From: Escherichia coli
GTDB taxonomy: Bacteria; Pseudomonadota; Gammaproteobacteria; Enterobacterales; Enterobacteriaceae
NCBI RefSeq assembly: GCF_044324875.1
Contig: NZ_CP172185.1
DNA: 64,000 nt
Direction: 5' to 3' (one strand)
Under the pieces are notes generated by a model. The model was not told where the DNA came from, searched no databases, and was given only the letters and a program-made list of their open reading frames with translations. Both the position numbers and the translations under genes were made by a program. Shown piece after piece: positions 2,781 to 20,287 of this stretch. The first letter of the stretch is position 1. Every line of letters starts with the position of its first letter.

Positions 2781-3644
2781 CTAATCGTCTATTTCGGAAA
2801 CCTTCTTATTCAGCAGACGAGAAGCGCGCCAGTAAACCAGCAACATCAGGCCCATTACGATAGTCAGCGTAATGCTGGTGGCTGCACCAAACGGCCAGTC
2901 ACGAATATTGAGGAACTGTACCTTGATGACGTTACCGATCAGCAGGTTTTTCGCACCGCCCATCAGGTCGGACACATAGAACAGGCCCATCGCTGGCAGC
3001 ATCACCAGCAGACATCCGGCAATAATTCCCGGCATCGTCAGTGGGATAATGATGCGGATAAAGGTCTGCAACTTGCTGGCACCGAGATCGCGCGCCGCCT
3101 CAAGCAACGGCTTATCCAGTTTTTCGATACTGGAGTACAGCGGCATCACCATAAACGGTAGCAGAATGTAAACCAGACCGATAATCACCGCACTGGGCGT
3201 GAACATGATGCGAATTGGTGTATCAATAACGCCCAGCCAGAGCAAAAACTCGTTGAGATAGCCTTTGGTGCTGAGGAAAATTTTCAGCCCGTAGATACGA
3301 ATCAATGAGTTGGTCCAGAACGGAACAATCAGCAGAAACAGCAGCAGCGGACGCACCTTGTGTGGCAGCTTCGCCAGAAACCAGGCAAAAGGATAGCCCA
3401 GCACCAGGCAGGCGAGGGTGGCGATCAGCGCCATATTCAGCGAGTGCAATAGCACTTCAAAATAGAGCGGATCGAGCAGACGCGTGTAGTTATCCAGCGT
3501 AAAGACCATTTTGACGAAACTGGCGTCGTCGCGGGTCAAAAAGCTGGTGCCAATGATCATCAGGTTGGGCAGAAAGACAAACAACACAAGCCAACCGACA
3601 ATAGTGACAATCACTACATTCTGGAACTTACTTGTGTTCTTCAT
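2781..3644 (-). CDS. potB: Spermidine/putrescine ABC transporter permease PotB; the extreme C-terminus (VSEIDD) may differ from K-12.
   Basis: 287-aa ORF matching recalled PotB sequence ([29 protein letters not shown]...); overlaps potA start. Confidence 0.9.
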
Positions 3645-4764
3645 CAGCCAGTACGACCTCCCAGCTTTCTACCCAATTAATGGCCATTTTTTGGTCGAGA
3701 GAGTGGTCAAAGTCAGGATCGTCTTCATTGAAGAATTCGCTGACCATCACCATCTTGCCATTTTCCAGTTCAACAACCGACTCCAGCGTCATGCCTTTGT
3801 AGTTACGCTCGCGAACGTAACCAATCAGCCCTTCAGCGTGGTTGTCGTCGTTAATCTCTTCAACACGTAAGTCTTCCGGGCGCAGCAGAACATGCAGTTT
3901 TTGCCCCGGTTCAACGGCGAAGTTAACGTAGATATTACATTCGCGGCCTTCAACGTTGGCGCGTACGCGCTGCTCGTCTAGACGTTCGATGACAGTGGCG
4001 TTAAACATATTGATTTCGCCAATAAACCCAGCAACAAACAGGTTTTTCGGCTCTTCATAGATTTCACGCGGCGTGCCGTCTTGCTCAATGCGACCATCGC
4101 GCATCACCACAATCCTGTCCGACATGGTGAGTGCTTCTTCCTGGTCGTGAGTCACGAAGACGAATGTAATGCCAAGCTTACGCTGTAACGCTTTCAGCTC
4201 GTTCTGCATTTGCTTGCGCAGTTTGTAATCCAGCGCTGAGAGCGACTCATCCAGCAACAACAGACGAGGCTTGTTAACCACTGCGCGGGCAATGGCGACG
4301 CGTTGCTGTTGACCACCAGAGAGCTGATGCGGTTTGCGTTGAGCGAAGGTTTCCAGCTGCACCATCCGCAGGGCTTCCATCACGCGGGGCGTAATTTCAG
4401 CAGCGGGGGTTTTTTGCATGCGTAACCCAAAGGCCACATTTTCGAACACGGTCATGTGGGGGAAAAGTGCGTAGCTTTGGAAAACAGTGTTCACATAGCG
4501 GTTTTCCGCCGGAACGTGGGTGATGTCCTCGTTATCCAGCATGATGCGTCCGGAATCAACAGTTTCCAGACCTGCAATCAGGCGAAGAACGGTTGTTTTA
4601 CCGCAGCCAGAAGGGCCAAGCAGCGTGAGGAACTCGCCATTGTTGATAGTCAGATCCAGCTGGGGAATGACCTCTTTACCATCAAAGCATTTGCGAATTC
4701 CCGCCAATTGCACCAGCGGTGAAAGCGAACTCGGTTGTTTATTCAATTTTTTACTCTGTCCCAT
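3628..4764 (-). CDS. potA: Spermidine/putrescine ABC transporter ATPase PotA.
   Basis: 378-aa ORF with Walker [13 protein letters not shown] signature LSGGQQQR and Walker B LLLLDE. Confidence 0.95.
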
Positions 4765-6288: not shown

Positions 6289-7410
6289 TTACCCTTCGAA
6301 GAACCAATACCCGCTATTGACCAGCGCCGCGAGCATCGCGAGGAATGACGGATCTTCCAGCGCATCGCCAAAATTCTCCGCAGTCAGCGCAATGTTGCTG
6401 GCGAGTGCATCCAGTGCCGGACGGTGCGGGGAATCGATCTTCTCACCATTGGCATACACGTCGTCGCCAATGCGCAATACGCGCAGACCACCCAGACGCA
6501 CCAGCACTTCACCTTGTTTCAGCGCATCGTAGATTTCATCCGGCTGATAAGGCGGCTCTGGCGGCGCGATATCCAGTTCATGGCGTGACTGGGATATAAA
6601 CTCCCCAAACCATTGCTTAAAGTGTTCCGGCTGGTTGATCAATTCGAGCATCATCTCACGCAGTTTATCCATCTCTTGCGGCAGAACATCCGCAGGATGA
6701 GCGCGAGGTGAAACATCAGGATCGCTGTAGTAGTTGCCGCCCAGTTCACGTTGCAGCACATAATCGGCAAATCCGCTAATCAGTTCCCGCGTATTTGGTG
6801 CGCGAAAACCGACGGAATAGTTCATCGCATTTTCCAGCGCGTAGCCTTCATGGGGGAATCCTGGCGGAATATAAAGAATATCGCCTGGCTCCAGTTCTTC
6901 ATCAATGATGGCTTCGAACGGATCAACCTGTAACAGATCCGGGTGCGGGCAGTGCTGTTTCATTTGCAGCTTTTCGCCCACTCGCCAGCGACGACGTCCG
7001 GTACCCTGAATGATAAACACGTCGTACTGATCGAGATGCGGGCCGACGCCGCCGCCAGGTACAGAAAAAGAGATCATCAGATCATCAATACGCCAGTCCG
7101 GTAGTTCACGGAACGGTCGCATCAGCGCGGCGGTCGGCTCATGCCAGTGGTTCACTGCCTGCACTAACAATGACCAGTTAGTTTCACCGAGATGATCGTA
7201 GCTTTCGAACGGGCCGTGGCTGACCTGCCATTTGCCATCCTGGTGGCTGACCAGTCGACTGTCGACTTCGCTTTCCATCGCCAGACCCGCCAACTCGTCT
7301 GGAGAGATCGGGTCAATAAAATTATTAAAGCCGCGTTTTAACACCACCGGACGTTTCTGCCAGTGACGTTCAAGAAAATCGGGCCAGTTAAGAGTGAGTT
7401 GGTATTCCAT
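6289..7410 (-). CDS. roxA: Ribosomal protein L16 arginine hydroxylase (JmjC/cupin 2-oxoglutarate oxygenase) RoxA/YcfD.
   Basis: ORF 6289..7419; start taken at MEYQLTLNWPDFLERHW (373 aa). Confidence 0.9.
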   Translation of the reverse strand: MEYQLTLNWPDFLERHWQKRPVVLKRGFNNFIDPISPDELAGLAMESEVDSRLVSHQDGKWQVSHGPFESYDHLGETNWSLLVQAVNHWHEPTAALMRPFRELPDWRIDDLMISFSVPGGGVGPHLDQYDVFIIQGTGRRRWRVGEKLQMKQHCPHPDLLQVDPFEAIIDEELEPGDILYIPPGFPHEGYALENAMNYSVGFRAPNTRELISGFADYVLQRELGGNYYSDPDVSPRAHPADVLPQEMDKLREMMLELINQPEHFKQWFGEFISQSRHELDIAPPEPPYQPDEIYDALKQGEVLVRLGGLRVLRIGDDVYANGEKIDSPHRPALDALASNIALTAENFGDALEDPSFLAMLAALVNSGYWFFEG

Positions 7411-7611
7411 GTTAAGCATCCACAGGCTGGTATCTGCAACCGATTATAACGGATGCTTAACGTAATGCGTGAAGTATGGGCATACTTTATCAATTAGTGT
7501 TTTTTGCCGTTTCATAATGTTTCAGGTTGTGCATTATGTTTTTGATTATAAACAAATTTGTGATTTTTCTTGTTCCAGCTTGTTTCACGTTGTAGCCCTT
7601 TGTGCAACGAT

Positions 7612-7637
7612 CGGTGTAGTTAATGGTGTAGTTAATT
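7612..7637. repeat. attL core of the integrated element: CGGTGTAGTTAATGGTGTAGTTAATT, itself a tandem GGTGTAGTTAAT duplication.
   Basis: Identical 26-mer at 18721–18746; a further ~45 bp upstream of each copy is imperfectly similar. Confidence 0.65.
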
Positions 7638-8888
7638 GTGATGACCGGATTCAAAATTATGAGCAGAGCACTTAACAAGCTGAGCGATACACAGCTAAGG
7701 AAAATCAACGGCACACCCGCCCAAAAAACAGCCTTTCTTAATGACGGTGGAAACTTGAGCGTCAGGCATTCAACCAGCGGCCTTTTAACCTGGTATTTCA
7801 CTTACAGGGCCGGAACGGGAAGGGGGGCATCACCGGAACGCATTAAGCTGGGAAATTATCCTGATCTGAGCCTGAAATCAGCCAGGGAAAAAGCCGCCCA
7901 GTGTCGCGCATGGCTGGCTGAGGGGAAAAATCCACGTCATGAGATGAATTACACCGTACAGGAAGCGTTAAAGCCTGTAACGGTTGGCGATGCGCTCACC
8001 TACTGGCTTGAGTCGTACGCAAAGGAAAACCGTGTGGATTATGACCCACTGAAAAAGCGGCTAAATAATCACGTAATACAGCACATTGGCCCTATGCCGC
8101 TGGATAAATGCGAGCTACGGCACTGGCTGGCCTGTTTTGATCGGGTGGCAAAGCAAGCCCCTGTTTCCGCCGGGTTCCTGCTACAGACATGCAAACAGGC
8201 GCTTAAGTTCTGCCGGAAGCGGCGCTATGCAATCAGCAACGTTCTTGATGATATGAGTGTGGCTGACGTTGGGAAAAAACCGGATATAGGCGAACGTGTC
8301 TTAAGTACCAAAGAACTGGGCGAATTATTGCAGGCACTGGACAAAAAAATATTTTCCCCTTACTACGTCGCACTAATCCGCCTCCTGATTGTTTTCGGAT
8401 GCCGGACAGTAGAACTGAGGTTATCGGAGATCGGCGAGTGGGATTTTACCGAAATGCTCTGGACCGTTCCGAAGGAGCACAGCAAAACGAAGGTAGCCAT
8501 ATTCCGGCCCATACCGGAAGCGATACTGCCGTTCGTCACGCAGCTGATGGAGCAGAACAGGCACACGGGCTTATTGCTGGGGGAAGTGAAACAGGAAACC
8601 AGCGTGTCGCAGTACGGCAGATTAGTGCACAGGAGGCTTAAACACCCTCACTGGTCACTGCATGACATCCGGCGCACCTTTACAACGATGCTGAACGATT
8701 TAGGCGTGGATCCTCACGTCGTGGAGCAGCTTACAGGCCACCAGATGCCAGGAATGCAGCGAGTTTATAATCATTCCCGTTATCTGGATGCGAAACGCAA
8801 TGCGCTGGATATGTGGACGGAGCGGTTAGGGATACTGGCGGGAGCACATGAAAACGTAACCACGCTACCAGTAACCAGAAGAAAATAA
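7638..8888 (+). CDS. int: Tyrosine-type site-specific integrase (P4-like family).
   Basis: Starts immediately after attL; C-terminal catalytic region ...LHDIRRTFTTMLNDLGVDPHVVEQLTGHQMPGMQRVYNHSRYLDA... (R, H-x-x-R, Y). Start ambiguous: GTG 7638, ATG 7641 or ATG 7659. Confidence 0.85.
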   Translation: MMTGFKIMSRALNKLSDTQLRKINGTPAQKTAFLNDGGNLSVRHSTSGLLTWYFTYRAGTGRGASPERIKLGNYPDLSLKSAREKAAQCRAWLAEGKNPRHEMNYTVQEALKPVTVGDALTYWLESYAKENRVDYDPLKKRLNNHVIQHIGPMPLDKCELRHWLACFDRVAKQAPVSAGFLLQTCKQALKFCRKRRYAISNVLDDMSVADVGKKPDIGERVLSTKELGELLQALDKKIFSPYYVALIRLLIVFGCRTVELRLSEIGEWDFTEMLWTVPKEHSKTKVAIFRPIPEAILPFVTQLMEQNRHTGLLLGEVKQETSVSQYGRLVHRRLKHPHWSLHDIRRTFTTMLNDLGVDPHVVEQLTGHQMPGMQRVYNHSRYLDAKRNALDMWTERLGILAGAHENVTTLPVTRRK

Positions 8889-8936
8889 TTTTTTTCGTGT
8901 TTTTTCAGTATGCGCATACTGGATAAGTGCACAGAT

Positions 8937-8970
8937 ACAACGTGAAACAATAAGCAACAACGTGAAACAA
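8937..8970 (+). promoter_or_regulatory. Two direct CAACGTGAAACAA repeats, candidate integrase arm-type binding sites.
   Basis: The same motif occurs inverted beside attL (7583–7598, CTTGTTTCACGTTG) and beside attR (18681–18700, TGTTCCACGTTGTTTCAT). Confidence 0.4.
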
Positions 8971-9262
8971 CCACGAACAAGAGGTCAAAAAGTATACAGA
9001 TTTATAAGTTGCTGATTTTTAATGCTCAACTGGTTTTTTATACATTAGCGAATAACGCTTTAAATAGTGAGAAAAAAGTCATAAAACGAGATTTTATGCC
9101 TTTGCATAATACTGAATTAAAATGATTTTTATTAAAATCACCCCGTTTCTGTAAAATACCCGCCACCAACATTTGCCAACTCTGAATCACCCTGACACAA
9201 TCAGACACATCCCAACGCAATAGAACACGAAATAACTCTTTAAGAAACGAAAGGGGGCAATA

Positions 9263-9451
9263 GTGTTAAGCACTGATCGGTTTATACGTGAAAAAGAATG
9301 CGAAAAGCTAACAGGCCTTAGCCGCTCATGCCGCTACCGCCTGGAAAAGGCCGGACAATTCCCATCACGGCGTAAGCTGGGCGGTCGTTCCGTTGGCTGG
9401 TCTTTATCCGAAGTTCTGGCATGGAAGGAAAGCTGCGAGGCAGTTCACTAA
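9263..9451 (+). CDS. alpA: AlpA-family phage transcriptional regulator / excisionase-like HTH protein (62 aa, GTG start).
   Basis: MLSTDRFIREKECEKLTGLSRSCRYRLEKAGQFPSRRKLGGRSVGWSLSEVLAWKE matches the AlpA/CP4-57 regulator pattern; sits just downstream of int. Confidence 0.75.
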   Translation: MLSTDRFIREKECEKLTGLSRSCRYRLEKAGQFPSRRKLGGRSVGWSLSEVLAWKESCEAVH

Positions 9452-9777
9452 AAAGACTGGCGGCACACAGCCGCCACCCATCCACTAATACAGAGATTTA
9501 ACCATGAAGACTGGATATACGCCCGAACAGGGGCGGGGCTTCGTTCGGCCTGGTGAAACTGAAAAACAACAAAATCGCGGTTTTTCAGGCATAAAAAAAG
9601 CGGCCCCGATAAGGAGCCGCCTTTCTGAACAATTAACCTACAGCGCAAAAAATGAATCTGAGCAGTGGGATTATATCAACCGTGCAACGAAGCGCCACAA
9701 TTGCCGGATAACGGGCAAAGAAAAGGCCACCTGTCACGGTGGCCAATGTGATCAGTGTGGTGGCTTGCTGGTGGCTA

Positions 9778-9969
9778 TCAACCTTTGGGTTCTATACCGC
9801 GCCGCTTTAGTTCAGCGCGCCCCAACTCTTTAAGCCAGTTGGCTAGGCTTATGCCGTCGCTCTGCGCTTCTTTGTCGAATTGCTCTTTTAGCTCTGGAGA
9901 AATTCGCATTCTGAATTGTGGGGATTGCCCATCACCCTTAGGGCTTTTATCACGTTTGATTGTTGACAA
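9778..9969 (-). CDS. Small ribbon-helix-helix (Arc/CopG-like) DNA-binding protein, candidate repressor, divergent from the replication operon.
   Basis: 63 aa, ...RMRISPELKEQFDKEAQSDGISLANWLKEL...; followed on the minus strand by a stem plus T-run terminator (~9590–9628). Confidence 0.5.
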   Translation of the reverse strand: MSTIKRDKSPKGDGQSPQFRMRISPELKEQFDKEAQSDGISLANWLKELGRAELKRRGIEPKG

Positions 9970-10016
9970 GTGGTCACCTATTAAATTAGCCTTTCTATTG
10001 TTAGGTGGTCACCTTA
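9969..10016. promoter_or_regulatory. Divergent promoter/operator region with two direct GTGGTCACCT repeats.
   Basis: AGTGGTCACCT at 9970 and GGTGGTCACCT at 10005, between the RHH gene start and the first gene of the rightward operon. Confidence 0.35.
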
Positions 10017-10088
10017 ACACGGGGACACTTAAAAAAGCAAAGCCCGAAGGCGCTAGGAACACCAACGGGCTTCTAACCACAAACCGTT

Positions 10089-10301
10089 ATGAGAGGTAGT
10101 TTTATGGCTGTAAGACAGCATACCCCACGACTAGCGCACACACAAACCGCCTTTGTGTGGCGTTTTCTGGCACTGAGTGCCGGAGAATCTCAAATCATCC
10201 ACGTAACCGCCTGGACGGAACGCGAAGCGCGTAGCCGTTGCCCGTCCGGTTGTGTTGCTGTATTCGCCGCCCGTATTCGTCAGGGGGTGTACCATGATTA
10301 A
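10089..10301 (+). CDS. Small protein resembling host cell-division inhibitor Icd-like proteins of P4-type satellites (weak call).
   Basis: MAVRQHTPRLAHTQTAFVWRFLALSAGESQIIHVTAWTEREARSRCPSGCVAVFAARI...; first gene of a translationally coupled operon; alternative start at 10104. Confidence 0.4.
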   Translation: MRGSFMAVRQHTPRLAHTQTAFVWRFLALSAGESQIIHVTAWTEREARSRCPSGCVAVFAARIRQGVYHD

Positions 10302-10662
10302 CCTGTCACTTACCGATCTTAACCGCGTTCAGTTTCGTGAGAAATTTACCGGACAGCTACTCGTCAATGTGGAGAACGGGCGCATAGTGCGTAATTATCA
10401 CCTGCCGGATGGTGCAATTGCCGGAAGCGTTGAAGCATTGCTGGAACTGGCGGAACGTGCGCGACTGATTAAGCCGTCAACGAGCCATCACGATGATGAT
10501 CTGCATTTTACCGGATGTATGGTGAGTCACTACGAAAACGGCGTCGAGGTATCCTGCGAACGGCTGCGTGATGATTGCTGTTTCGGCACACTGCCGGAAT
10601 TTATCGAATTGCTGACCAGTTGCGGATATCAGGTTATTCAGGGGGTGCGCCATGTGCAATAA
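10294..10662 (+). CDS. Hypothetical protein (~122 aa), satellite early operon.
   Basis: ORF with start/stop overlap to both neighbours; no recognisable motif. Confidence 0.55.
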   Translation: MINLSLTDLNRVQFREKFTGQLLVNVENGRIVRNYHLPDGAIAGSVEALLELAERARLIKPSTSHHDDDLHFTGCMVSHYENGVEVSCERLRDDCCFGTLPEFIELLTSCGYQVIQGVRHVQ

Positions 10663-11107
10663 CATCCGTCCGGACGCAGCAGGCGAAGCCATCATAACGC
10701 TAATGCACGCGCTGATTGATATTTCATGCACGGCAGCAACCGCAGAAAAACACATTACCAGAGAGCCGGAATATACAGGGGCAATAATCCCGCATTCGCT
10801 GGCCTACGCACAGCTAACCGCTGATATGGCGCTGAATGAGGCTAAAGCCATCCTGATTGCTGATTGTGAAAATGGGGGGGGGGTTATGCGTGATGATCGT
10901 TTTAATTCCCTGAAACAGGAATTTTCCGGCGTTCCTGATAATGCGGCTGATGCGCTTTCGTCAATATCTGAAATTATGCGGGTGGCTTTTTTCTTTCTTT
11001 GCACTGATGAGCACAGGGATACAGGGCTAAATATTCTTGATATCGCCGCTAATTATGCTGATTTCGTAACGGAAACTGTTTTAAGAAAAACGACGGACGG
11101 GGATTAA
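10652..11107 (+). CDS. Hypothetical protein (151 aa), satellite early operon.
   Basis: Intact ORF overlapping the upstream stop; no recognisable motif. Confidence 0.55.
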   Translation: MCNNIRPDAAGEAIITLMHALIDISCTAATAEKHITREPEYTGAIIPHSLAYAQLTADMALNEAKAILIADCENGGGVMRDDRFNSLKQEFSGVPDNAADALSSISEIMRVAFFFLCTDEHRDTGLNILDIAANYADFVTETVLRKTTDGD

Positions 11108-11108
11108 T

Positions 11109-11342
11109 ATGCGTGATATTTACCACGAAACAATAGACCGCGCATTTCTTGCACTTTCTCACAGTGAAAATATGTTGGAAATATTGCGCATATGTCTTGA
11201 AACGCTTGGAGATAATGAACGTGATAAACAGAAATCAATGATTGTCACGGCATTAATAACGCTTCTTGAGCCTGTAATAAATGAGTTGCAGGAAATAGAG
11301 ACATTACACGACCAGTATAAAGCGCCCCACACCGGAGAATAA
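11109..11342 (+). CDS. Hypothetical protein (77 aa), satellite early operon.
   Basis: Starts 2 bp after the upstream stop. Confidence 0.5.
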   Translation: MRDIYHETIDRAFLALSHSENMLEILRICLETLGDNERDKQKSMIVTALITLLEPVINELQEIETLHDQYKAPHTGE

Positions 11343-11347
11343 AAAAC

Positions 11348-11635
11348 ATGAAAAATAAAAATTCTGGCGTTAATGCCAGCGGCCCCGCTCGTCCTGAAAT
11401 CCGTCCCGGCGATATTTTCCGTGATAACTACGGCGGCACGGTAATGATTAAGGGCGTGGAAGAACGGCGCGTAACCTACCGCCGTGATGGCTACGAATAT
11501 GACTGCGTTATGCCTGTTTATCAGTTCCGGCGTGATTTCACGCTGGTGGGCCATCGTAAAGCCGTTAATCAGAAACGTGCTGCAAGTTATATCCGCAAAA
11601 TCCGTGAAATGCTGGTCGCAGGGGGTAAGAAATGA
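11348..11635 (+). CDS. Hypothetical protein (95 aa), overlaps the replication gene start.
   Basis: Intact ORF; stop overlaps the start of the next gene (ATGA-type coupling). Confidence 0.55.
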   Translation: MKNKNSGVNASGPARPEIRPGDIFRDNYGGTVMIKGVEERRVTYRRDGYEYDCVMPVYQFRRDFTLVGHRKAVNQKRAASYIRKIREMLVAGGKK

Positions 11636-13038
11636 AACTTGCACCGAACGTAAAACTGTTACCGAAAGATAAACACACTGAGGCGGTTATTTTTGCGGGT
11701 GATAATGCTCACTCCTTTGCAGAACATTACATGATTGCACAGGCCAAAAAAGCAGGCGATCCCATCCCTCCGGTTTACCTGGGCCGTTATCAGTTAAGCG
11801 AACTGGACAACTTACAGATTGTTGATGAAGGACGATACAGGGCAAAGGTCATACGCGCCGGAAACCTGGACGATATGCAGATGCTGACCATTGCCACAAA
11901 ACTGGCGATCGCCGGAGTCCAGGAGGCGCGCCTACTTTCTGAAAATTTCGAACTGCTGGAGGACTGGAGCGACCAGCTACCACGACTACGGGAAACATGG
12001 GAGAGAGGGGAAAGCCTGGTCATGAATGGCGGAAAGCGAAAAATCACACTTCCCATCTCATGGGGTTCTGAGGGATTCGATGCGCAGCAAAGCTACGTCA
12101 TTAAGGGGCTTATTCCGGCTGAGTCATTATGCAGCACCTACGGGGCCAGCGGTTCTTATAAATCGTTCCTCGCCATTTCCTGGTCGTGCCATGTTGCCAC
12201 AGGTATGGCATGGGGAGGCCGCAGGGTAAGTAAGGGTGCGGTTATCTATATCGCTGGCGAAGGCAGCATGGGCGTAAAACGCCGCGTTAAGGCGTGGGAG
12301 ATAACCCACGACAAGGTGGTTACAGATTTGTGCATCATTAACGCGCCTGTTTTCCCTGCATCGCCTGACTATGTGGAGCAGGTTATCAGGACTGCCGGAC
12401 TTGTTAAGAGCAGAACGGGCGAAAATGTGCGGCTGATTGTGATCGACACGCTGGCCCGTTGCTTTGGTGGGAATGATGAAAATGATTCCCGTGATATGGG
12501 CGCATTTATCCAGGGGTGTGACGCGATAAAGCAGGCCACAGGGGCCACGGTGCTGGTGGTTCACCATTCCGGCAAGGATGAAACAAAGGGGGCGCGTGGT
12601 TCCAGTGCATTCCGTGCCGCGCTTGATGCAGAGTACCGAATCAGCCGCGAAAATTCAGACGTTACAGCACTGGTCGCAGCATGTACGAAGATGAAGGACG
12701 CAGAGGAGCCAAAAGAGAGCGCATACGACCTTAAAAGCGTGGAGGTGTTCACCGATACAGATGGCGAAGAAATTGTGTCCATGGTGGTGATTGACGTTCC
12801 CCGCGCCCCTGCTGAACTGGAGCGCATCGAGGAGGCAGGCAACAAGACGGAAAACCATACCGCGCTATGGGGGTGCATCCGTTCACGCACACAGAACGGC
12901 GACAAGTGCACGATCCCGCTGTTACGTGATGACATGAAACGGCTTGGGTATGACGTGAAAAATATGCGGCGATGGTTAGCCAAACTGGAAAAAGACGCCG
13001 TGATTTACATTGATGGTGATGATGTAGGACCACTGTAA
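11632..13038 (+). CDS. Replication initiator / RecA-fold P-loop ATPase (RepA/AAA_25-like primase-helicase family).
   Basis: 468 aa; P-loop-like YGASGSYKSF, Walker-B-like LIVIDTLARCFGG, VLVVHHSGKDETKG; followed directly by iterons. Confidence 0.75.
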   Translation: MKLAPNVKLLPKDKHTEAVIFAGDNAHSFAEHYMIAQAKKAGDPIPPVYLGRYQLSELDNLQIVDEGRYRAKVIRAGNLDDMQMLTIATKLAIAGVQEARLLSENFELLEDWSDQLPRLRETWERGESLVMNGGKRKITLPISWGSEGFDAQQSYVIKGLIPAESLCSTYGASGSYKSFLAISWSCHVATGMAWGGRRVSKGAVIYIAGEGSMGVKRRVKAWEITHDKVVTDLCIINAPVFPASPDYVEQVIRTAGLVKSRTGENVRLIVIDTLARCFGGNDENDSRDMGAFIQGCDAIKQATGATVLVVHHSGKDETKGARGSSAFRAALDAEYRISRENSDVTALVAACTKMKDAEEPKESAYDLKSVEVFTDTDGEEIVSMVVIDVPRAPAELERIEEAGNKTENHTALWGCIRSRTQNGDKCTIPLLRDDMKRLGYDVKNMRRWLAKLEKDAVIYIDGDDVGPL

Positions 13039-13240
13039 AAAGTGAGTAGTAAAAGTGAGTAATGGTGAGGTTTTTACAAAATATTAACACAATTACTCAC
13101 TTTCTCACCTGTATACATGCTCAAAAGTGAGCAGTGAAAAAACACTTATGAAACATGCACATATAAAACACAAAAATCTCAAGTGAGACGAAGTGAGACG
13201 CTTTAAAAAGTGAGTAGTAAAAGTGAGAGATGGTGAGCAA
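13039..13240. repeat. Iteron cluster, putative satellite replication origin.
   Basis: A ~30-bp unit AAAAGTGAGTAGTAAAAGTGAG(T/A)(A/G)ATGGTGAG occurs twice (13037–13070 and 13203–13237), with about ten AAGTGAG-type motifs including tandem AAGTGAGACGAAGTGAGACG and an inverted copy. Confidence 0.55.
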
Positions 13241-13608
13241 TGAATAAAAACCGAACAGCAGGACAAAATACCGAAGGTAAATTTATGAACACTGAAATTG
13301 AAACACTGAGCATATCAACTGCCCTTCCTGGCTGGTGGGCTAAGTTCAAAGACGACGACGGCACGGAATGGTATAGCCCAATTGCTGCATGGGCGCTTTG
13401 TGATATCCACCATTTCGGCACCGGAGATACTTACCGCGAAATCTTACCCGTGCTGACCAGTGAGCTGGGCATGAGTCCGCATAGTCCTGATGAGGGAATG
13501 TGCGAGTGCCTTTATCTGCCGGATAAGAAGTTTGTTCACTGTGGTGAATCGATGGTATTTGCCTGGTATCCGGTTAACGACAGCAGCAATAGCGGTACTC
13601 TGGAGTAA
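13240..13608 (+). CDS. Hypothetical protein (122 aa; alternative start MNTEIETL at 13285).
   Basis: ORF immediately downstream of the iterons. Confidence 0.45.
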   Translation: MNKNRTAGQNTEGKFMNTEIETLSISTALPGWWAKFKDDDGTEWYSPIAAWALCDIHHFGTGDTYREILPVLTSELGMSPHSPDEGMCECLYLPDKKFVHCGESMVFAWYPVNDSSNSGTLE

Positions 13609-13611
13609 ATC

Positions 13612-13854
13612 ATGAAGGTAAACCACAAAAAGACAGATCACCGCGCCATTGACCTTACAGAGCACTGGCTGAGGGTGGCGATAAAAATCATCGACCGCAA
13701 CACGGGGGAAGGATACGCGAAAGCACATCCCGAACTGATAAGTGCATTCATGACCACAGCGGCGGCAAACTTTGCCACGCTGACAGAGCGGGATATTGCC
13801 GAAGCAGAACAGGTAACAACCATCAACGTTAAAACCAGTGAGGTGGAATCATGA
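13612..13854 (+). CDS. Hypothetical protein (80 aa).
   Basis: ORF whose stop overlaps the ssb-like start. Confidence 0.45.
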   Translation: MKVNHKKTDHRAIDLTEHWLRVAIKIIDRNTGEGYAKAHPELISAFMTTAAANFATLTERDIAEAEQVTTINVKTSEVES

Positions 13855-14261
13855 CAGCACAGATAGCGGCTTACGGGCGGCTGGTGGACGACCCGCAGGT
13901 AAAACAGACCAGTAAGGGTACACCGATGACGCTGGCGCGTATGGCGGTATCTTTACCATGCGGCCAGGCACAGGACGGACAGGCGACGTTATGGTTATCG
14001 GTCATCGCATTTGGCAAACAGGCCGACTTTCTGGCTAAACATCAAAAAGGCGACGTTGCCAGCGTATCCGGCACGATGCAGGTCAGCCAGTGGACCGGAC
14101 AGAACGGGGAAACGCGGCAGGGTTATCAGGTTATTGCAGACAGCGTAATCAGTGCCCGTGCGGCACGTCCTGGCGGGAACAGACGCAAAACCACAGGCAC
14201 ACAGGGTAATCAGCCACCAGCGGGAGGCGATGACCCTTACGGTGATGATATTCCGTTCTGA
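13851..14261 (+). CDS. ssb: Single-stranded DNA-binding protein homologue (short OB-fold) with a conserved SSB C-terminal tip.
   Basis: WLSVIAFGKQADFLAKHQKGDVASVSGTMQVSQWTGQNGETRQGYQV parallels E. coli SSB [48 protein letters not shown]; Gly/Pro-rich linker; ends ...DPYGDDIPF (E. coli SSB ends DFDDDIPF). Confidence 0.8.
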   Translation: MTAQIAAYGRLVDDPQVKQTSKGTPMTLARMAVSLPCGQAQDGQATLWLSVIAFGKQADFLAKHQKGDVASVSGTMQVSQWTGQNGETRQGYQVIADSVISARAARPGGNRRKTTGTQGNQPPAGGDDPYGDDIPF

Positions 14262-14271
14262 GGGGGTGACG

Positions 14272-14544
14272 ATGGTACATGACCGCATAGCGGAGGAACT
14301 CGAGGCAAAAGGATTTTACCGGAGGGCGGCGGCGCGATGGGGTGAAGTTATGAGGCTGGTGAGCACTGACAAGGAGCGCGAACAGGTGGCAATGCGACGG
14401 CTGGAATGTTCCCTGAAGGCACAGAGGCCACCGGAGCCGCCGGATGATTTAGGCGCTCTGAAAAGGTCAGTTAATCGCACTGAAAAACAAATGGGGATAG
14501 CTGGTATTGGCAAAGCAATATGGCGCAACTACCCGCAGAAGTGA
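14272..14544 (+). CDS. PerC-family transcriptional regulator-like protein (~90 aa).
   Basis: MVHDRIAEELEAKGFYRRAAARWGEVMRL... resembles the PerC N-terminal pattern; six-frame ORF 14152..14544 trimmed to the ATG after the ssb stop. Confidence 0.5.
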   Translation: MVHDRIAEELEAKGFYRRAAARWGEVMRLVSTDKEREQVAMRRLECSLKAQRPPEPPDDLGALKRSVNRTEKQMGIAGIGKAIWRNYPQK

Positions 14545-14550
14545 GCACAC

Positions 14551-14620
14551 AGCCGGAGCAATCCGGCTTTTTTACGCCTAAAAAAAGCCCGATAAGGTCA
14601 AAGGGGGCTTATCGGGCTTT
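14551..14620 (+). terminator. Two tandem rho-independent terminators ending the satellite replication/regulation operon.
   Basis: AGCCGGAGCAATCCGGCTTTTTT, then AAAGCCCGATAAGG-tcaaagggg-CTTATCGGGCTTTT. Confidence 0.6.
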
Positions 14621-14784
14621 TGTAGAGGAGGTTTTTTATGGTGCACTGGCACACATGATCGGGATAATCATTTCATAATTTGCAACATAACTCAATATTG
14701 TTGCGCAAAATGCAATCATGATTATAATCAGGACTGGATGAACATCCAGTTATGATTTTTTAAGTCAAAGAGGAATTTCTGACT

Positions 14785-14991
14785 ATGGCAGAAGAGAAAA
14801 AAGGCGGGGTGACGGTCTACATAAGCCCCGACATCGTGGAGGCGCTCAAGGAACGCCACCAGCAGAATGTAAAAGCAGGCATTGCGGCAGGACTTGATCC
14901 GCTGGCGATGGTTGAGCCGTCAACAGGCTGGCAGGTGCGTACCTATTTACGTGCGGCGCTGGGTATCAATCAGGTTCACGGAGGTGAATAA
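14785..14991 (+). CDS. Hypothetical small protein (68 aa), first gene of the head module (possible scaffold or assembly factor).
   Basis: ORF translationally coupled to the capsid gene; preceded by an AT-rich promoter region with palindromes TGATTATAATCA and TTGCGCAA. Confidence 0.45.
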   Translation: MAEEKKGGVTVYISPDIVEALKERHQQNVKAGIAAGLDPLAMVEPSTGWQVRTYLRAALGINQVHGGE

Positions 14992-16046
14992 TGACAGGCA
15001 AAGCAAAGGCACTTACAACTAACCAGCTTTTCGCGTACCTGAATCGCGGGGATATTTCGGAATATAAATTTAGTCCGCTGTTTACCACGCTGTTTTTCCC
15101 GAACGTGGCGACCTTCAACACCCAAAACATCATGCTGGACACCCTGGACATTGAAGAGGTTACGATGTCAGCGTTCTGTTCTCCTATGGTGGGTAGTCAG
15201 GTCCAGCGCGATAAAGGGTACGAAACCAGCACGATTAAACCAGGCTACATGAAGCCAAAGCACGAAATCGATCCAACAAAGACCATCATGCGCATGGATG
15301 GAGAAGATCCGGCACAGCTTAACGATCCAACTTACCGCCGTATGCGCCTGATTACTGGCAACATGCGCCGCCAGATAAACGCCATTAAGGCGCGCGTGGA
15401 ATGGCTGGCGGTGAATGCGGTAACGACCGGAAAAAACATCATTGAGGGCGAAGGCATAGAACGCTATGAAATCGACTGGAAAATACCGGAAAACTGCATC
15501 ATACAGCAGGCCAGTGGTAAAAAATGGTCCCAGCAGGATAAAGACATGCACGACCCAATCTATGACATCGAGCTTTATGCTGATCAGGCAGGTTGCCCCG
15601 CCAACGTCATGATTATGGGCGGTGAGGTATGGCGCACATTACGCAGCTTTAAAAAATTCCGTGAACTGTACGATCTTTCCCGTGGATCAGAATCCGCCGC
15701 CGAGCTGGCCTGTAAAAACCTGGGCGAAGTGGTGAGCTTTAAAGGCTATCTTGGTGATCTGGCCCTTATCGTCTATTCCGGCAAATACACTGACAGCGAC
15801 GGGACCGAAAAATATTTCCTTGAGCCTGATTTGCTGGTCCTGGGTAACACCAACAATAAAGGGCTGGTGGCATATGGTGCGATTATGGATCAGGAAGCGG
15901 TAAGAACGGGCGCAACGCAAAACATGTACTACCCGAAAAACTGGATTGAGGACGGCGATCCGGCGATTGAGTACGTGCAGACGCACAGCGCACCGCAGCC
16001 TGTACCGGCAGATATTCGCAAATTTGTTACCGTCAAAATTGCTTAA
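14991..16046 (+). CDS. Phage lambda gpE-family major capsid protein homologue.
   Basis: 351 aa; collinear matches to recalled lambda gpE: FSPLFTTLFFP vs FDPLFLRLFF, PGYMKPKHEIDP vs PGYVKPKHEVNP, DPTYRRMR vs DPAYRRRR, VSFKGYLGDLALIVYSG vs VSYKGMYGDVAIVVYSG, YYPKNW vs RYPKNW. Confidence 0.85.
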   Translation: MTGKAKALTTNQLFAYLNRGDISEYKFSPLFTTLFFPNVATFNTQNIMLDTLDIEEVTMSAFCSPMVGSQVQRDKGYETSTIKPGYMKPKHEIDPTKTIMRMDGEDPAQLNDPTYRRMRLITGNMRRQINAIKARVEWLAVNAVTTGKNIIEGEGIERYEIDWKIPENCIIQQASGKKWSQQDKDMHDPIYDIELYADQAGCPANVMIMGGEVWRTLRSFKKFRELYDLSRGSESAAELACKNLGEVVSFKGYLGDLALIVYSGKYTDSDGTEKYFLEPDLLVLGNTNNKGLVAYGAIMDQEAVRTGATQNMYYPKNWIEDGDPAIEYVQTHSAPQPVPADIRKFVTVKIA

Positions 16047-16057
16047 CGGGGGATTCT

Positions 16058-16393
16058 ATGGACGCTCCATACATTGAGTTATTTTCAGGCAGCCAACAGG
16101 TATCCACGACGCTGGTACATTTTGCCGCTGATGCTGGCGTTATTCAGGAATTTACCCCGCTGATGCTGGCAGACAATGGCGAGTTTAAGCCGTGGGATGG
16201 TAAGGAATCTGGCAAGGCTGTTTATCTGACCTCGTACCCTGTGGACACGTCAAAGCAGAAATCAGCACAGTGTTACAAGACGGGGATATTCAATATTGCC
16301 GCCGTTAACTGGCCTGACAGCGTCGACACCGATGCGAAAAAATGCGCCGCCTTTGCGGGTTCCGGCGTATCCGTTCAGCCGCTGGCCCGATAA
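16058..16393 (+). CDS. Phage lambda gpD-like head decoration protein homologue.
   Basis: 111 aa; FTPLMLADNGEFKPWDG / KTGIFNIAAVNWPDSVDTDAKKCAAFAGSGVSV parallels lambda gpD MTPLMLDTSSRKLVAWDG / [34 protein letters not shown]. Confidence 0.7.
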   Translation: MDAPYIELFSGSQQVSTTLVHFAADAGVIQEFTPLMLADNGEFKPWDGKESGKAVYLTSYPVDTSKQKSAQCYKTGIFNIAAVNWPDSVDTDAKKCAAFAGSGVSVQPLAR

Positions 16394-16467
16394 GCAGGGG
16401 GAACGATGGCACAAACCAGGGCGATGACGGCGACATCTATCGCATACTGAAAACCATCTGAGACAAG

Positions 16468-16491
16468 GCCGGAGAAATCCGGCTTTTTTTG
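16468..16491 (+). terminator. Rho-independent terminator after the head genes, just upstream of cos.
   Basis: GGCCGGAGAAATCCGGCTTTTTTT; near-identical to the 14551 terminator. Confidence 0.55.
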
Positions 16492-16499
16492 CGGGTCCT

Positions 16500-16640
16500 T
16501 TCCGGCATGTGGACCCGTTACGGGGCGTCGACCTCGCACGTTTTCGCTATTTATGAAAATTTTCCGGGAAAAAGCATGTCAGTTCTTCTTGTTATTAACA
16601 TATTGTTTTTAAAGAAATAACTATCAAGAAAGAAACGACA
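16500..16640. other. Lambda-type cohesive-end site (cosQ/cosN/cosB-like); predicted 12-nt overhang region GGGCGTCGACCT at 16523–16534.
   Basis: GTTACGGGGCGTCGACCTCGCACGTTTTCGCTATTTATGAAAATTTTCCGG is near-identical to the lambda genome ends (GTTACG|GGGCGGCGACCTCGCGGGTTTTCGCTATTTATGAAAATTTTCCGG); a downstream GAAAGAAACGACA resembles a lambda cosB R site. Confidence 0.8.
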
Positions 16641-16710
16641 TCATAATGATGAAAAATCTGTTTTTTTTGGCATTTCATGTCGTAACTGATTTTTGATAAG
16701 GAATTGCTGA

Positions 16711-17295
16711 ATGAATGTTAATAAAAAGAGGCTTGCCGAAATTTTTAACGTGGACCCGCGGACGATTGAACGCTGGCAGTCACAGGGGCTTCCTTGCGTC
16801 TCCAAAGGCAGTAAGGGCATTGAATCTGTATTTGATACTGCCATGGCAATTCAGTGGTATGCGCGGAGGGAAACTGATATCGAAAACGAAAAGCTCCGCA
16901 AAGAACTGGACGATTTGCGTGCGGCAGCGGAGTCAGATTTACAACCCGGCACCATTGACTATGAACGCTATCGGCTCACAAAAGCGCAGGCAGATGCGCA
17001 GGAACTTAAAAACGAGCGCGATCGCGGTGACGTGATTGATACAGAGTTTTGCATGTACGCGCTTTCAAAACTGGCGAGTCAGATTTCATCAATCATGGAC
17101 AGCCTCCCGCTTACTATGCAAAGGAGCTTCCCACAGATGACCCCCGCCATGCTGGATGGCCTGAAAAAAGAAGTTGTCAGAGCCTGTAACGCATGCACAA
17201 AACTTGATGAAAACATCCCGCGAATGCTGTCCGATTATCTGATGGAAACTACCGGAAATGTGCCTGATAAGTTTCAGCCGGATAAAGACAAGTAA
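16711..17295 (+). CDS. Terminase small subunit, lambda Nu1 family (TerS/Rpp-like).
   Basis: [29 protein letters not shown]...[44 protein letters not shown] tracks lambda Nu1 MEVNKKQLADIFGASIRTIQNWQEQGMPV...[44 protein letters not shown]. Confidence 0.85.
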
Positions 17296-17536
17296 CGTAG
17301 TGCACAATGACCGAAGCCAGTTTACTGACTGGCTTTCAGCGTTGCGCTGGTGGGCGTTATGCGTCAGTGATAAACGTCTCCAATATTACTGATATTCGAC
17401 ATCCCCACCTCTCCACACCAGCTCGAATATCATTTTTCTCATTAAAAACAGGACATTAAAAACTGGTCAGATGTCCCATAAAAAGCCAAATGGGACAGGT
17501 CAAAAGCTTTTTTTGCAGTAATTTTCAATAGGTTAC

Positions 17537-17935
17537 TTGATGTGGTGGTGTCCCATGAAAATTCAAAAATCAGCCGTTTTCCGCGATGCTCCCGCCCCGT
17601 GGCAGGGCACCCCACAAGGAGGACCCGCCATCACTATGGAGGACATGACCATGACCGAGACCGAAGCGCTCGGGATAATCCGCAGTATTACCGGAATCAG
17701 CCAGCAGGCTGGCGAACAGGAGGCCACGCAGCCGGACAGCGTGATCGCCGAAAATTACGTGCGTGTTGTTGCTGATGTAATGCGCCGTGATGGTATTGAG
17801 CTTAACGGCGTGGATATGCGCGACATACGAATCAGAGTACTAGAGTTGCTGGCATACCGTCGACGCGTGGCGATGTATCAGGAGAGCGCGAAAAACACTT
17901 ATCAGTGGAAGAAGCCGGAGCGGTTACGGCGGTAA
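17537..17935 (+). CDS. Hypothetical protein (likely ~100 aa from an internal ATG near 17636, which has an RBS).
   Basis: ORF downstream of terS; no recognisable motif; ends 1 bp before the palindrome array. Confidence 0.45.
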   Translation: MMWWCPMKIQKSAVFRDAPAPWQGTPQGGPAITMEDMTMTETEALGIIRSITGISQQAGEQEATQPDSVIAENYVRVVADVMRRDGIELNGVDMRDIRIRVLELLAYRRRVAMYQESAKNTYQWKKPERLRR

Positions 17936-18560
17936 CTGGTTGATATTTTCGAAATTCGCCAGCGGCGAACATCGGGGAAACCAGCCTAACCAGTTGATTC
18001 TTTCGGAAACAGCCATTGGCGGAATCCGGCGCGGTAACTTGCTGATATTCCCGATAACGCAAAATTGCGCTGGCTACATCCCTCACATCTGAGGACTGAT
18101 AATGCGACATTGCGCTGGCTGGCAAAGTGCAAAATTGCACGATGGCCTAACCCATTGATTATTTCGAAAACCTGCAATGCAGGAAATCGGGGAAGTAAGC
18201 CTAAGCTATTGATTCTTTCGGAAACCTCAATTTGAGGAAGTCGGCGCGGTAACTCGCTGAACTTAAAGCAAACCTCAAAATTGAGCTGGCTGAATAATCA
18301 TTATGATTACGCAGATGATTAAGGAATGACCGAAGGCGGAAATTCGCCTGTGGTTGATGGGGGAGTTGCAGATCTGCAACTCGACCATGAAACTACGGAA
18401 ACTACCCGTAGTTTGGGTAGTAAGAGTAACACCCAGATTTTGGGACTTACTCGTGATACCCAAATTTGGAGTATCGGTGGCAACCATAACGACTTTCGTT
18501 ACGGTTGATGCTTTTACCCCATTGGGGGAAAGGTATTACGATAATCATAACACCTACCGA
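17936..18560. repeat. Array of many distinct short palindromes in a diverged, duplicated scaffold (unknown function).
   Basis: Scaffold TTGAT(A/T)(T/A)TTTCGAAA...ATCGGGGAA..AGCCTAA occurs twice, and TTGATTCTTTCGGAAAC...TCGGCGCGGTAACT..GCTGA twice; different palindromes in each copy (e.g. TTCGCCAGCGGCGAA, CCTGCAATGCAGG, GTTGCAGATCTGCAAC). Full list in findings. Confidence 0.7.
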
Positions 18561-18720
18561 ACAGGTAAAGCCCACCAGCCTGATTGACATTTAACCGGAA
18601 AAAAAGCCAGGTAGCCCCGTTATGTGGATCCCCATATCGACAGCAACGCCCCCTTAAAATTACCCGCCTTTATATTTCTTGTGCCTATTTGTTCCACGTT
18701 GTTTCATACAGTGCGCCGAA

Positions 18721-18746
18721 CGGTGTAGTTAATGGTGTAGTTAATT
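18721..18746. repeat. attR core, direct repeat of attL.
   Basis: Identical 26-mer to 7612–7637. Confidence 0.65.
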
Positions 18747-18826
18747 TGCGATTTTTGGCACTTTTGTTTGTGTATATTTTTAATTAAATCAATACATTAA
18801 CTAATATCGGTGATAAAAGGGCATAT

Positions 18827-20287
18827 TTATTCATCTTTCGGCGCAGAATGCTGGCGACCAAAAATCACCTCCATCCGCGCACCGCCCAGCATGCTCTCTC
18901 CGGCGACGATTTTACCCTCATATTGCTCGGTGATTTCGCGGGCTACCGCCAGCCCTACACCTTGCCCAGGGCGTAAAGTATCAACCCGTTGACCACGGTC
19001 GAAAATGACCTCTCGCTTGCTTAATGGAATACCGGGGCCATCATCCTCGACCACAATATAGAGATGCTCGTCGGTTTGCCTTGCAGATATTTCGACAAAC
19101 TCGAGGCAATATTTACAGGCATTATCCAGCACGTTGCCCATCACCTCGACAAAATCGTTCTGCTCACCGACAAAGCTGATCTCTGGCGAAATATCGAGAG
19201 AGATATTGACCCCTTTGCGTTGATACACTTTGTTCAGCGCCGAGGTGAGATTGTCCAGCAGTGGGGCGACCGGATGTAGCTCGCGGCTAAGCAATGTCCC
19301 GCCGCGCATACTGGCACGATGCAGGTAGTAGCCAATTTGCTGTGAAATGCGACTGATTTGCTCCAGCATTACCGGCTCAGCATCACTGACGCTCATCTTC
19401 TCACTACGCAGAGAACGCAGCGTACTTTGCAGCACCGCCAGTGGCGTTTTCAGACTATGGGTCAGGTCGGTGAGCGTTGTACGATATTTGTCGTAACGTT
19501 CGCGTTCACTTTTTAACAATCGGTTCAGGTTTCGTACCAGACTGGTCAGTTCTCGCGTTGTGGCTGGATTGAGCAATTCGCGGTTATGTTCTTCCAGTTC
19601 GCGGACTTCTTTTGCCAGGGCTTCGATGGGGCGTAAACTCCACCTGGCGGCGACCCACAGCAGCGGGATCACTAACAGCAGATTGGCTGAGAGCACATAG
19701 ATAAACCAGCTCCAGACCATATAGGAACTTTTTAGCTCCACCGGAATGGTATCCACCACCACAATGGTCAACTTTGGCATCCGCGATGTTGCCGGGTAGA
19801 CGTTTACCGCCACCGAGTGGGTCATCTCCGCGTCGTCATCATCTTCCCGCACTTCCTGCAACTGTTGCTGTATCGAATGATCTCCACTCAGCAAGAGGCT
19901 GGTATCGTTAACATCCGCTTCAATTTCATGAAAACCATTCGATTTCAGCCAGTCAGGCTGGATCATCTTCATCAGCCAGGGCACGTCACGTTGCGCCCAT
20001 AAAAGCTGCCCGTTCTCATCATAAATTAGCGTCATAGTGGGGCTTTGCTTGTCGATATTTTCGGGTAACTCGACATGCAACTTATTGTTTTCCCACTTCG
20101 CAAGGGTATAGAACAGATTGCTCTCGCCACGTAACAGCCGAAACGTAGTTTTATCGAAACTGACGCTATAACCGATCAGCGCGACCATTCCGTAGGCAAG
20201 CGAAAGCACCAGTACAACCGCTGCCGTTGCCAATAGAAAACGTACCCGCAGCGAGAGCGGGAAAAAAAGACGCAGTAATTTTTTCAT
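18827..20287 (-). CDS. phoQ: Sensor histidine kinase PhoQ.
   Basis: 486-aa ORF; HAMP/histidine-kinase motifs ([17 protein letters not shown]); overlaps phoP stop. Confidence 0.95.

Follow-up and report, generated by a model that had tools for sequence, protein, structure and literature searches.

Near-identical predicted terminator hairpins at the gene-block boundaries of an EcCICFT073-family chromosomal island and its relatives

Two hairpins in an 11.1-kb satellite

The 64,000-nt stretch of the Escherichia coli contig NZ_CP172185.1 (assembly GCF_044324875.1) analysed here, hereafter the window, contains an 11.1-kb island between roxA and phoQ, bounded by the 26-bp direct repeat CGGTGTAGTTAATGGTGTAGTTAATT, in which two near-identical hairpins, both predicted intrinsic terminators, lie at the ends of two gene blocks. 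The island has the make-up of a phage-inducible chromosomal island (PICI): int and alpA at the left end, replication genes, cos and att repeats, with no lysis or tail genes; its Pfam content comprises integrase, AlpA (PF05930), AAA_25 helicase, SSB, PerC, capsid E, decoration D and Nu1. Judged by its roxA/phoQ site and gene order, the element belongs to the published EcCICFT073 family of PICIs. This assignment, and the finding that the second hairpin abuts a lambda-type cos, go beyond the first-pass annotation of this DNA. The hairpins and the units that they adjoin are as follows (positions in the window).

14551-14573, plus strand: hairpin 1, predicted intrinsic terminator with a 7-bp stem AGCCGGA/UCCGGCU, a GCAA tetraloop and U6
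16467-16490, plus strand: hairpin 2, predicted intrinsic terminator with the stem (G)GCCGGA/UCCGGC(U), a GAAA tetraloop and U7
14272-14544, plus strand: perC-family regulator gene (PF06069, E = 4e-38; PerC in the annotation of relatives), the last gene of the replication/regulation block
14785-16393, plus strand: head operon between the two hairpins, with a 68-aa open reading frame (ORF), a capsid E-type gene (14991-16046) and a decoration gene (16058-16393)
16493-16710, plus strand: lambda-type cos directly 3' of hairpin 2, with cosQ GGGTCCT at 16493-16499 and the cohesive-end equivalent GGGCGTCGACCT at 16523-16534

The first-pass annotation had reported near-identical hairpins at 14551 and 16468, and this was borne out. 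The shared pattern, GCCGGAG-N-AATCCGGC followed by T6-7, starts at 14552 and 16468 and at no other site in the 64 kb, and all 20 specified bases of GCCGGAGNAATCCGGCTTTTT are identical between the two copies. With up to three mismatches allowed on both strands of the window, GCCGGAGNAATCCGGCTTTTT still gave only these two matches, compared with none in 100 dinucleotide shuffles. Hairpin 1 consists of arms at 14551-14557 and 14562-14568, the loop GCAA at 14558-14561 and a T-run at 14568-14573; hairpin 2 of GCCGGA at 16468-16473, GAAA at 16474-16477, TCCGGC at 16478-16483 and a T-run at 16484-16490, with an optional G-U pair (16467/16484), so that the extended stem begins at 16467 and the shared core at 16468. 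The two differ in the second loop base, both loops being of the GNRA type, and in the outermost pair (A-U in hairpin 1, G-U in hairpin 2). Predicted RNA folds have energies of -12.6 kcal/mol (z -5.05) for hairpin 1 and -14.2 kcal/mol (z -3.46) for hairpin 2.

Both sites combine a stable G+C-rich stem-loop, an adjacent 3' U-tract and a co-oriented position just after a stop codon. The perC stop codon (14542-14544) lies 7 nt ahead of hairpin 1, and a TGA at 16459-16461, in the frame of the connector gene of relatives, lies 6 nt ahead of hairpin 2; a further 8 nt (the U-run and GC) separate hairpin 2 from cosQ. Since the opposite strand continues with TGTGTGC or CTTGTCT after the hairpins, they are predicted to act in one direction only. 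The proposal that they close the replication/regulation block and the head block agrees with the gene content: the PF06069 PerC gene precedes hairpin 1, and capsid E-type and decoration genes, joined in relatives by a connector-like gene, precede hairpin 2. No RNA family match was obtained in an Rfam search of the whole element (7400-19000, E <= 1). The phage collection queried with the hairpin 1 region (14500-14800) also gave no match, and this junction therefore appears to be satellite-specific.

The remaining landmarks of the element that bear on the comparisons below are these.

7612-7637 and 18721-18746: att repeats, the probable attL and attR cores (26-bp direct repeat)
7638-8888: int
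14701-14728, plus strand: putative head-operon promoter read from the sequence (-35 TTGCGC at 14701-14706, 16 nt, -10 TATAAT at 14723-14728)
14732-14751, plus strand: leader hairpin after this promoter (-13.4 kcal/mol, z -4.63), with a U-run to 14760

The element of the window lacks the connector-like gene (414 bp in relatives) through a 358-bp deletion with its junction at about 16403-16411. The deletion endpoints are 9-bp microhomologies, two copies of ACGATGGCA, and a remnant ORF of 14 codons is left in 16394-16467. Because of this deletion the hairpins are 1916 nt apart in the window, compared with 2271-2275 nt in relatives; an identical deletion occurs in one IMG/VR contig (L042/L124).

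Conservation in relatives and recurrence elsewhere

Conservation was followed in two sets of satellite sequences. An exact-pattern scan of viral contigs listed at least 120 loci, or 121 with one more E. coli locus, and these 121 carry 181 copies of the hairpin, two in 42 loci and three in nine. A second sample of 80 loci was gathered by capsid protein and was therefore independent of the hairpin. In nearly all of its loci that cover the positions, hairpins occur on both sides of the capsid start, at about 440 nt upstream of it and at about 1.8 kb in the downstream direction. Of the 163 copies, 152 are exact; the loop N is what commonly varies, and single-base variants are few. EcCICFT073 has both hairpins with the same loops as in the window (at 9008 and 11280 of its sequence, L122, for hairpins 1 and 2).

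Among sequences selected by the hairpin itself, every column is completely identical (1.00) except the loop N (0.38-0.54) and one other loop position, and hairpin 2 is kept in 51 of 51 unique boundary-2 sequences, which had been chosen as lying within three mismatches of the hairpin. The stem shows no variation within the lineage, and the U-run ranges from 5 to 9 nt in relatives. When all copies were pooled, the block of identity was exactly 22 nt, the hairpin with its T-run, and similarity was at background level on both flanks; a search for homology between copies beyond these 22 nt detected only a weak CA-rich preference upstream.

The two boundaries differ in their surroundings. At boundary 1 the upstream genes (several perC alleles, SSB, or the gene of a 74-aa cassette) cannot be aligned, and similarity among the sequences sets in at the hairpin. 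Around boundary 2, conservation runs from the connector gene to cosN, with the hairpin within the conserved block, and divergence starts in cosB. The loop base is A in all 65 copies at connector-gene ends and C after SSB ends, window-type perC, CFT-type perC and cassette ends, in each case whatever follows downstream. As the loop base follows the upstream type, the hairpin goes with the upstream unit, as the 3' terminus of that unit would.

In total the hairpin joins at least six upstream and at least ten downstream contexts in many combinations, with the flanks assorting independently. The upstream units are several perC alleles, SSB, the 74-aa cassette and the connector gene; the downstream units are a bidirectional terminator, five cos types, the 74-aa cassette and an HK97-type capsid module, and in some relatives a cos cassette stands directly 3' of the boundary-1 hairpin. 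The same hairpin between interchangeable upstream and downstream units is in line with the modular assembly suggested in the first-pass annotation. Two of these arrangements are located as follows.

L044 8850-9235 and L334 6112-6486: 74-aa single-gene cassette (MPMKFDEILKQRDKYH...) between two direct copies of the hairpin
L334 (the O157:H7 element of E. coli ECP19-798) 6466-12133: second hairpin copy adjoining an HK97-type module of capsid, protease, portal, HNH, TerS and TerL genes

In L334 the shared left arm (int to perC) meets the HK97-type module at the hairpin. The 74-aa cassette is moron-like and was found in lambda-type PICIs and in one HK97-type (capsid-forming) element; in some relatives it is bordered by a third copy of the hairpin.

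Such mosaicism might indicate that the 22-bp identity is a recombination linker, at once a terminator and a crossover point at which blocks are swapped by short-homology recombination, possibly by the recombinases of helper phages. The swaps would include lambda-type head genes and cos for an HK97-type module, insertion of the 74-aa cassette, and different cos cassettes. The range of contexts joined, the two direct copies around the 74-aa cassette and the position of the O157:H7 hairpin would be consistent with this reading. Similarity limits also fall close to the hairpin: that to EcCICFT073 begins 5 nt before hairpin 1 (query position 107), and that of other perC-bearing elements stops at the end of the U-run (query position 134). 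Multiplicity points the same way, as two or three copies occur in 51 of the 121 satellite loci and in two of 120 loci of unrelated genomes, among the matches listed. However, the loop base is almost perfectly linked to the upstream unit, which places the exchanges 3' of the loop or beyond the hairpin, as would follow from the hairpin being no more than the end of that unit; the mosaic break at boundary 2 lies in cosB and not at the hairpin; 22 bp is short for RecA-dependent exchange; and illegitimate recombination with functional selection would by itself place junctions at operon ends, without a dedicated linker. On balance we regard a linker function as possible but doubtful. The stronger form of the idea, that the 22-nt terminator is a portable joint kept at every block boundary for swaps of the right arm during co-replication with the helper, among them swaps of single-gene cassettes and of cos cassettes that differ in helper specificity, seems somewhat less likely still; if true, it would explain how PICIs and capsid-forming PICIs come to have one left arm in common.

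The 22 nt are not retained at larger distances. In distant PICIs, found by way of capsid homologues (52-68% identity), the terminators at these boundaries have other stems. The Salmonella PICI L200 has AAGCCGA-UUCCC-UCGGCUU 22 nt ahead of cosQ, and the divergent E. coli PICI L204 has UCGCGAGGUU-GGCAA-GGCCUCGCGA 45 nt ahead of cosQ. At the SSB end, the orthologous hairpin is GCCGGGA-UUUU-UCCCGGC in L204, with one pair added on both arms, and a G-U variant in L205, although these examples are few. From these comparisons, structure and not sequence appears to be retained at larger distance. Of the two outcomes that the first-pass annotation had set against each other, conservation of the sequence holds for the close lineage, in which nearly all copies are exact, and conservation of the structure alone for the distant PICIs, in which the stems differ and a hairpin is kept.

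In a scan of one genome per bacterial species, the counts from which are lower bounds, the exact 21-mer was found in at least 120 loci of unrelated phyla, at 29-69% G+C. Among the unrelated loci listed, 118 of 120 hold a single copy and none has a PICI-like context; about 19 unrelated viral contexts also contain the exact hairpin sequence. The occurrence of the exact 21-mer in unrelated bacteria, together with the other stems of distant PICIs, indicates that the sequence is a generic, recurrent, short and strong terminator. By these counts, the satellite lineage stands out only in having several copies at fixed positions.

This recurrence raises the question of whether hairpins 1 and 2 arose independently, GCCGGA-GNAA-UCCGGC-Un being a favoured optimum for short terminators. 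The many unrelated bacteria and viruses with the exact 21-mer, and the lack of flanking homology past 22 nt, would be consistent with such convergence. Against it, members of the satellite family have, as a rule, two or three copies within 0.35-2.4 kb, the other terminators of the element use unrelated stems, and the distant PICIs did not arrive at the same sequence. Convergence is thus improbable, because multiple copies are so rare outside the satellite family. A repeat of the REP/BIME type or a miniature mobile element was also considered and rejected, as no copy (up to three mismatches) was found in the approximately 53 kb of flanking chromosome.

A different terminator hairpin (AGAGGCGGCTTAACGG...) is present twice in the Lelliottia PICI L206, at 3056-3079 and 3445-3467, with a putative, iteron-rich origin between the copies and a cos-like region after them. 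It may be common among these satellites for terminators to be duplicated at block boundaries.

cos sites, neighbouring terminators and the head-operon control region

The cos next to hairpin 2 aligns with that of lambdoid phages. Its cosQ, 12-nt cohesive-end sequence and cosB start match those of lambda, DE3 and PhiR5_1, and the DE3 record carries a 'cos site' annotation in the aligned region. Similarity to phages (about 103 records, these three among them) begins at 16487-16488, within the U-run of hairpin 2. Where the satellite has the hairpin, the phages carry ATCATTATCA(C/T)TTT, with no hairpin upstream of their cosQ. Late transcription of lambda must cross cos, and a terminator placed there would block it. 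The cosB-like region extends to the Nu1-type gene (16711-17295, PF07471). The cos region of the window has about 93% DNA identity to that of phage PhiR5_1, with a phage-like cosB and a full-length Nu1-type small terminase in 16540-17295, whereas EcCICFT073 has a divergent cosB and RppA; this difference may reflect a different strategy of packaging or interference. The second cos is the following.

about 17626-17560, minus strand: inverted cos-like site with cosQ GGGTCCT at 17626-17620 and the cosN-like sequence ACGGGGCGGG from 17600, inside an ORF at 17537-17935

No hairpin lies ahead of this second, inverted cos in the window or in EcCICFT073. The distance from hairpin to cosQ is 8-11 nt in the close lineage, and the other hairpins of distant PICIs stand at 22 and 45 nt. 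The hairpin was accordingly rejected as a part of the lambda-type cos, being absent from phage cos sites and from the second cos and variable in its spacing to cosQ.

The first-pass annotation had also suggested that the sites double as recognition elements for protein or RNA. Such an element could be an accessory of cos, beside cosQ, in packaging termination, or a boxB-like GNRA hairpin for an antiterminator of the helper. Three features might be read in this way: the short, lineage-wide spacing to cosQ, with each of five cos types following a copy; the invariant stem between diverging flanks; and loops of the GNRA or GAAAA kind, which may resemble the lambda boxB fold. They are outweighed by the phage cos regions, which have no hairpin and in which similarity begins only in the U-run, by the inverted second cos without one, and by hairpin 1 of the window, which has no cos after it. 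Further, the length of the U-run and the distance to cosQ vary, distant PICIs have other hairpins, and unrelated bacteria commonly carry the exact sequence, with one copy at nearly all of the loci listed. The paper on Rpp of EcCICFT073 (PMC6739421) and the preprint on capsid-forming PICIs (10.1101/2022.09.08.507074) are also silent on nucleic-acid hairpins. The suggestion was therefore not borne out, and we consider a recognition role highly improbable.

A lambda-type nut site, made up of boxA and, downstream of it, a 5-bp stem capped by a GNRNA pentaloop that no U-tract follows, was likewise rejected on direct reading: the satellite hairpins have a tetraloop, a 6-7 bp stem and U6-7, with no boxA-like CGCTCTTA upstream.

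Two further terminators had been described in the first-pass annotation as one reused element.

14580-14621, both strands: second, two-way terminator, with A7, GCCCGATAAG (14587-14596) and CTTATCGGGC (14608-14617), and T4
9593-9621, minus strand: separate terminator GCGGCUCC-UUAUC-GGGGCCGC-U7 (-21.6 kcal/mol, z -4.07)

The two-way terminator starts 6 nt past the U-run of hairpin 1. It folds with -24.2 kcal/mol on the plus and -19.3 kcal/mol on the minus strand, and in relatives its arms are conserved (0.94-1.0) and its loop is variable; with U7 on the minus strand compared with U4 on the plus strand, it should be the better terminator on the minus strand. Both sites are indeed hairpins containing the 9-mer CCGATAAGG (14589-14597 and 9606-9614), with A7 on the plus strand (U7 on the minus strand). 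The reuse of one element did not hold up, since CCGATAAGG pairs differently in the two hairpins. The copy at 14589 is part of the 5' arm of the stem, an arm conserved in relatives, and the copy at 9606 runs from the last bases of one arm across the 5-nt loop into the other arm (GCGGCCCC-GATAA-GGAGCCGC, 9600-9620). At the latter site relatives have the loop GATAT or GAAAT, and EcCICFT073 has a different hairpin altogether. With one mismatch allowed, CCGATAAGG has 17 matches in the window against 11.0 +/- 3.6 expected, and is not enriched. As a functional shared core it was rejected on these three grounds (differing pairing roles, lack of enrichment, and a 9606 copy that is not conserved in relatives), and on sequence comparison its sharing is best read as coincidence.

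The 9593-9621 terminator lies downstream of a HicB-like gene of the ribbon-helix-helix type (9778-9969, minus strand) and of another terminator (9744-9725, minus strand), so that this gene is followed by two tandem minus-strand terminators, at 9744-9725 and 9628-9590. A further hairpin (9476-9458) lies beside the alpA end, and the 53-nt block around the 9590 terminator is an isolated patch of similarity in many relatives.

Downstream of the two-way terminator, the control region of the head operon is kept in the Salmonella and divergent E. coli PICIs, despite their different upstream terminators.

Window 14668-14760, L200 (Salmonella) 3600-3700 and L204 (divergent E. coli) 3690-3735: control region with the inverted repeat TTGCAACA..TGTTGCGCAA, the candidate promoter, and the leader GACTGGATGAACATCCAGTT with its U-run

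The promoter at 14701-14728 would mark the start of the unit that hairpin 2 closes, and the leader hairpin could be a regulated attenuator.

Predicted transcription units of the satellites

Taken together, these results make it quite probable that the hairpins are Rho-independent terminators that define and insulate three transcription units, with descent within the lineage and selection on a short stem accounting for their constancy. From sequence and comparison we infer that they terminate transcription in vivo, that they insulate the units and that the copies have one origin. The nascent RNA would fold into GCCGGA-GNAA-UCCGGC, a 6-7 bp stem with a GNRA tetraloop, after which the U6-7 tract would release RNA polymerase. 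Hairpin 1 would close the rightward replication/regulation operon after perC, backed up by the two-way terminator, and this pair would shield the head-gene promoter against upstream as well as antisense transcription. Hairpin 2 would close the head operon just ahead of cosQ and keep transcription out of cos and the Nu1/Rpp gene. The three units would be an early operon, a head operon, and cos with a terS-like gene. The copies would be near-identical through common descent, each carried along at the 3' end of the transcription unit before it; with a stem so short, purifying selection would leave only the N of GNRA free, and gene blocks would be exchanged among relatives at or just after the terminators.

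Several observations weigh against this interpretation. An invariant stem between flanks that cannot be aligned could also reflect sequence-specific selection or homogenising recombination. The common origin of hairpins 1 and 2 is unprovable, because the 21-mer recurs convergently and the 22 nt have no flanking homology. Efficient termination at hairpin 2 would leave the Nu1/Rpp gene dependent on read-through or on a promoter of its own, and no clear promoter for this gene was found downstream of cos. Finally, a consensus terminator scan finds hairpin 1 and not hairpin 2, probably because the maximal stem of the latter (AAGGCCGGA/UCCGGCUUU) uses up part of the U-run.

The hairpins share with the intrinsic terminators of E. 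coli and its phages the G+C-rich stem, the tetraloop, the adjacent U-tract, the operon-end position after a stop codon and, as predicted, the single direction; they differ in that several near-identical copies occur within one 11-kb element, at the same junctions throughout the lineage. Mosaic lambdoid phages offer another parallel, with morons that carry their own terminators between conserved modules and with short conserved junction sequences between unrelated flanks. In the satellites, which are not phages, the conserved junction sequence is the terminator itself.

Among known satellites, the closest counterpart is EcCICFT073, the model Gram-negative cos PICI, which has two cos sites (Fillol-Salom et al. 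2018; 2019, PMC6739421). The two elements share the roxA/phoQ site, int, alpA, replication genes, SSB, perC, the capsid E-type and decoration genes and cos, and each of them has a forward and an inverted cos. The element of the window differs in having a RepA-type helicase instead of a primase, in lacking the connector-like gene, and in having a Nu1-type small terminase where EcCICFT073 has RppA. Capsid-forming PICIs of the EcCIEDL933 type (Alqurainy et al., 10.1101/2022.09.08.507074) offer the second comparison. The O157:H7 element, which has the architecture of a capsid-forming PICI and is here compared with the EcCIEDL933 type, shares the left arm of int, alpA, SSB and perC and likewise has two exact copies of the hairpin, which flank its 74-aa cassette. 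It differs in that the second copy is followed by a full HK97-type packaging module (annotated as HK97-type capsid, protease, portal, head closure protein, connector, HNH endonuclease, TerS and TerL) in place of lambda-type head genes and cos.

Our literature search returned no description of these terminators: the EcCICFT073 paper (PMC6739421) and the preprint on capsid-forming PICIs (10.1101/2022.09.08.507074) make no mention of any terminator, and a paper on helper-embedded PICIs mentions terminators only in unrelated contexts. The mechanism itself is ordinary, a strong generic terminator reused within one lineage, and the finding is broader than the view from a single window, as the hairpin recurs at the same gene-block boundaries in more than 100 related satellites. 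Undescribed in the satellite papers checked, the hairpins give a predicted map of the transcription units of the EcCICFT073 and EcCIEDL933 families, in which the early operon closes after perC or SSB, the head operon is insulated and has a deeply conserved control region of its own, and a cos/terS unit lies past the terminator. They also mark the exact point at which the architectures of classical and capsid-forming PICIs diverge, and could be used in satellite annotation, in the design of synthetic PICIs and in tests of packaging-module exchange.

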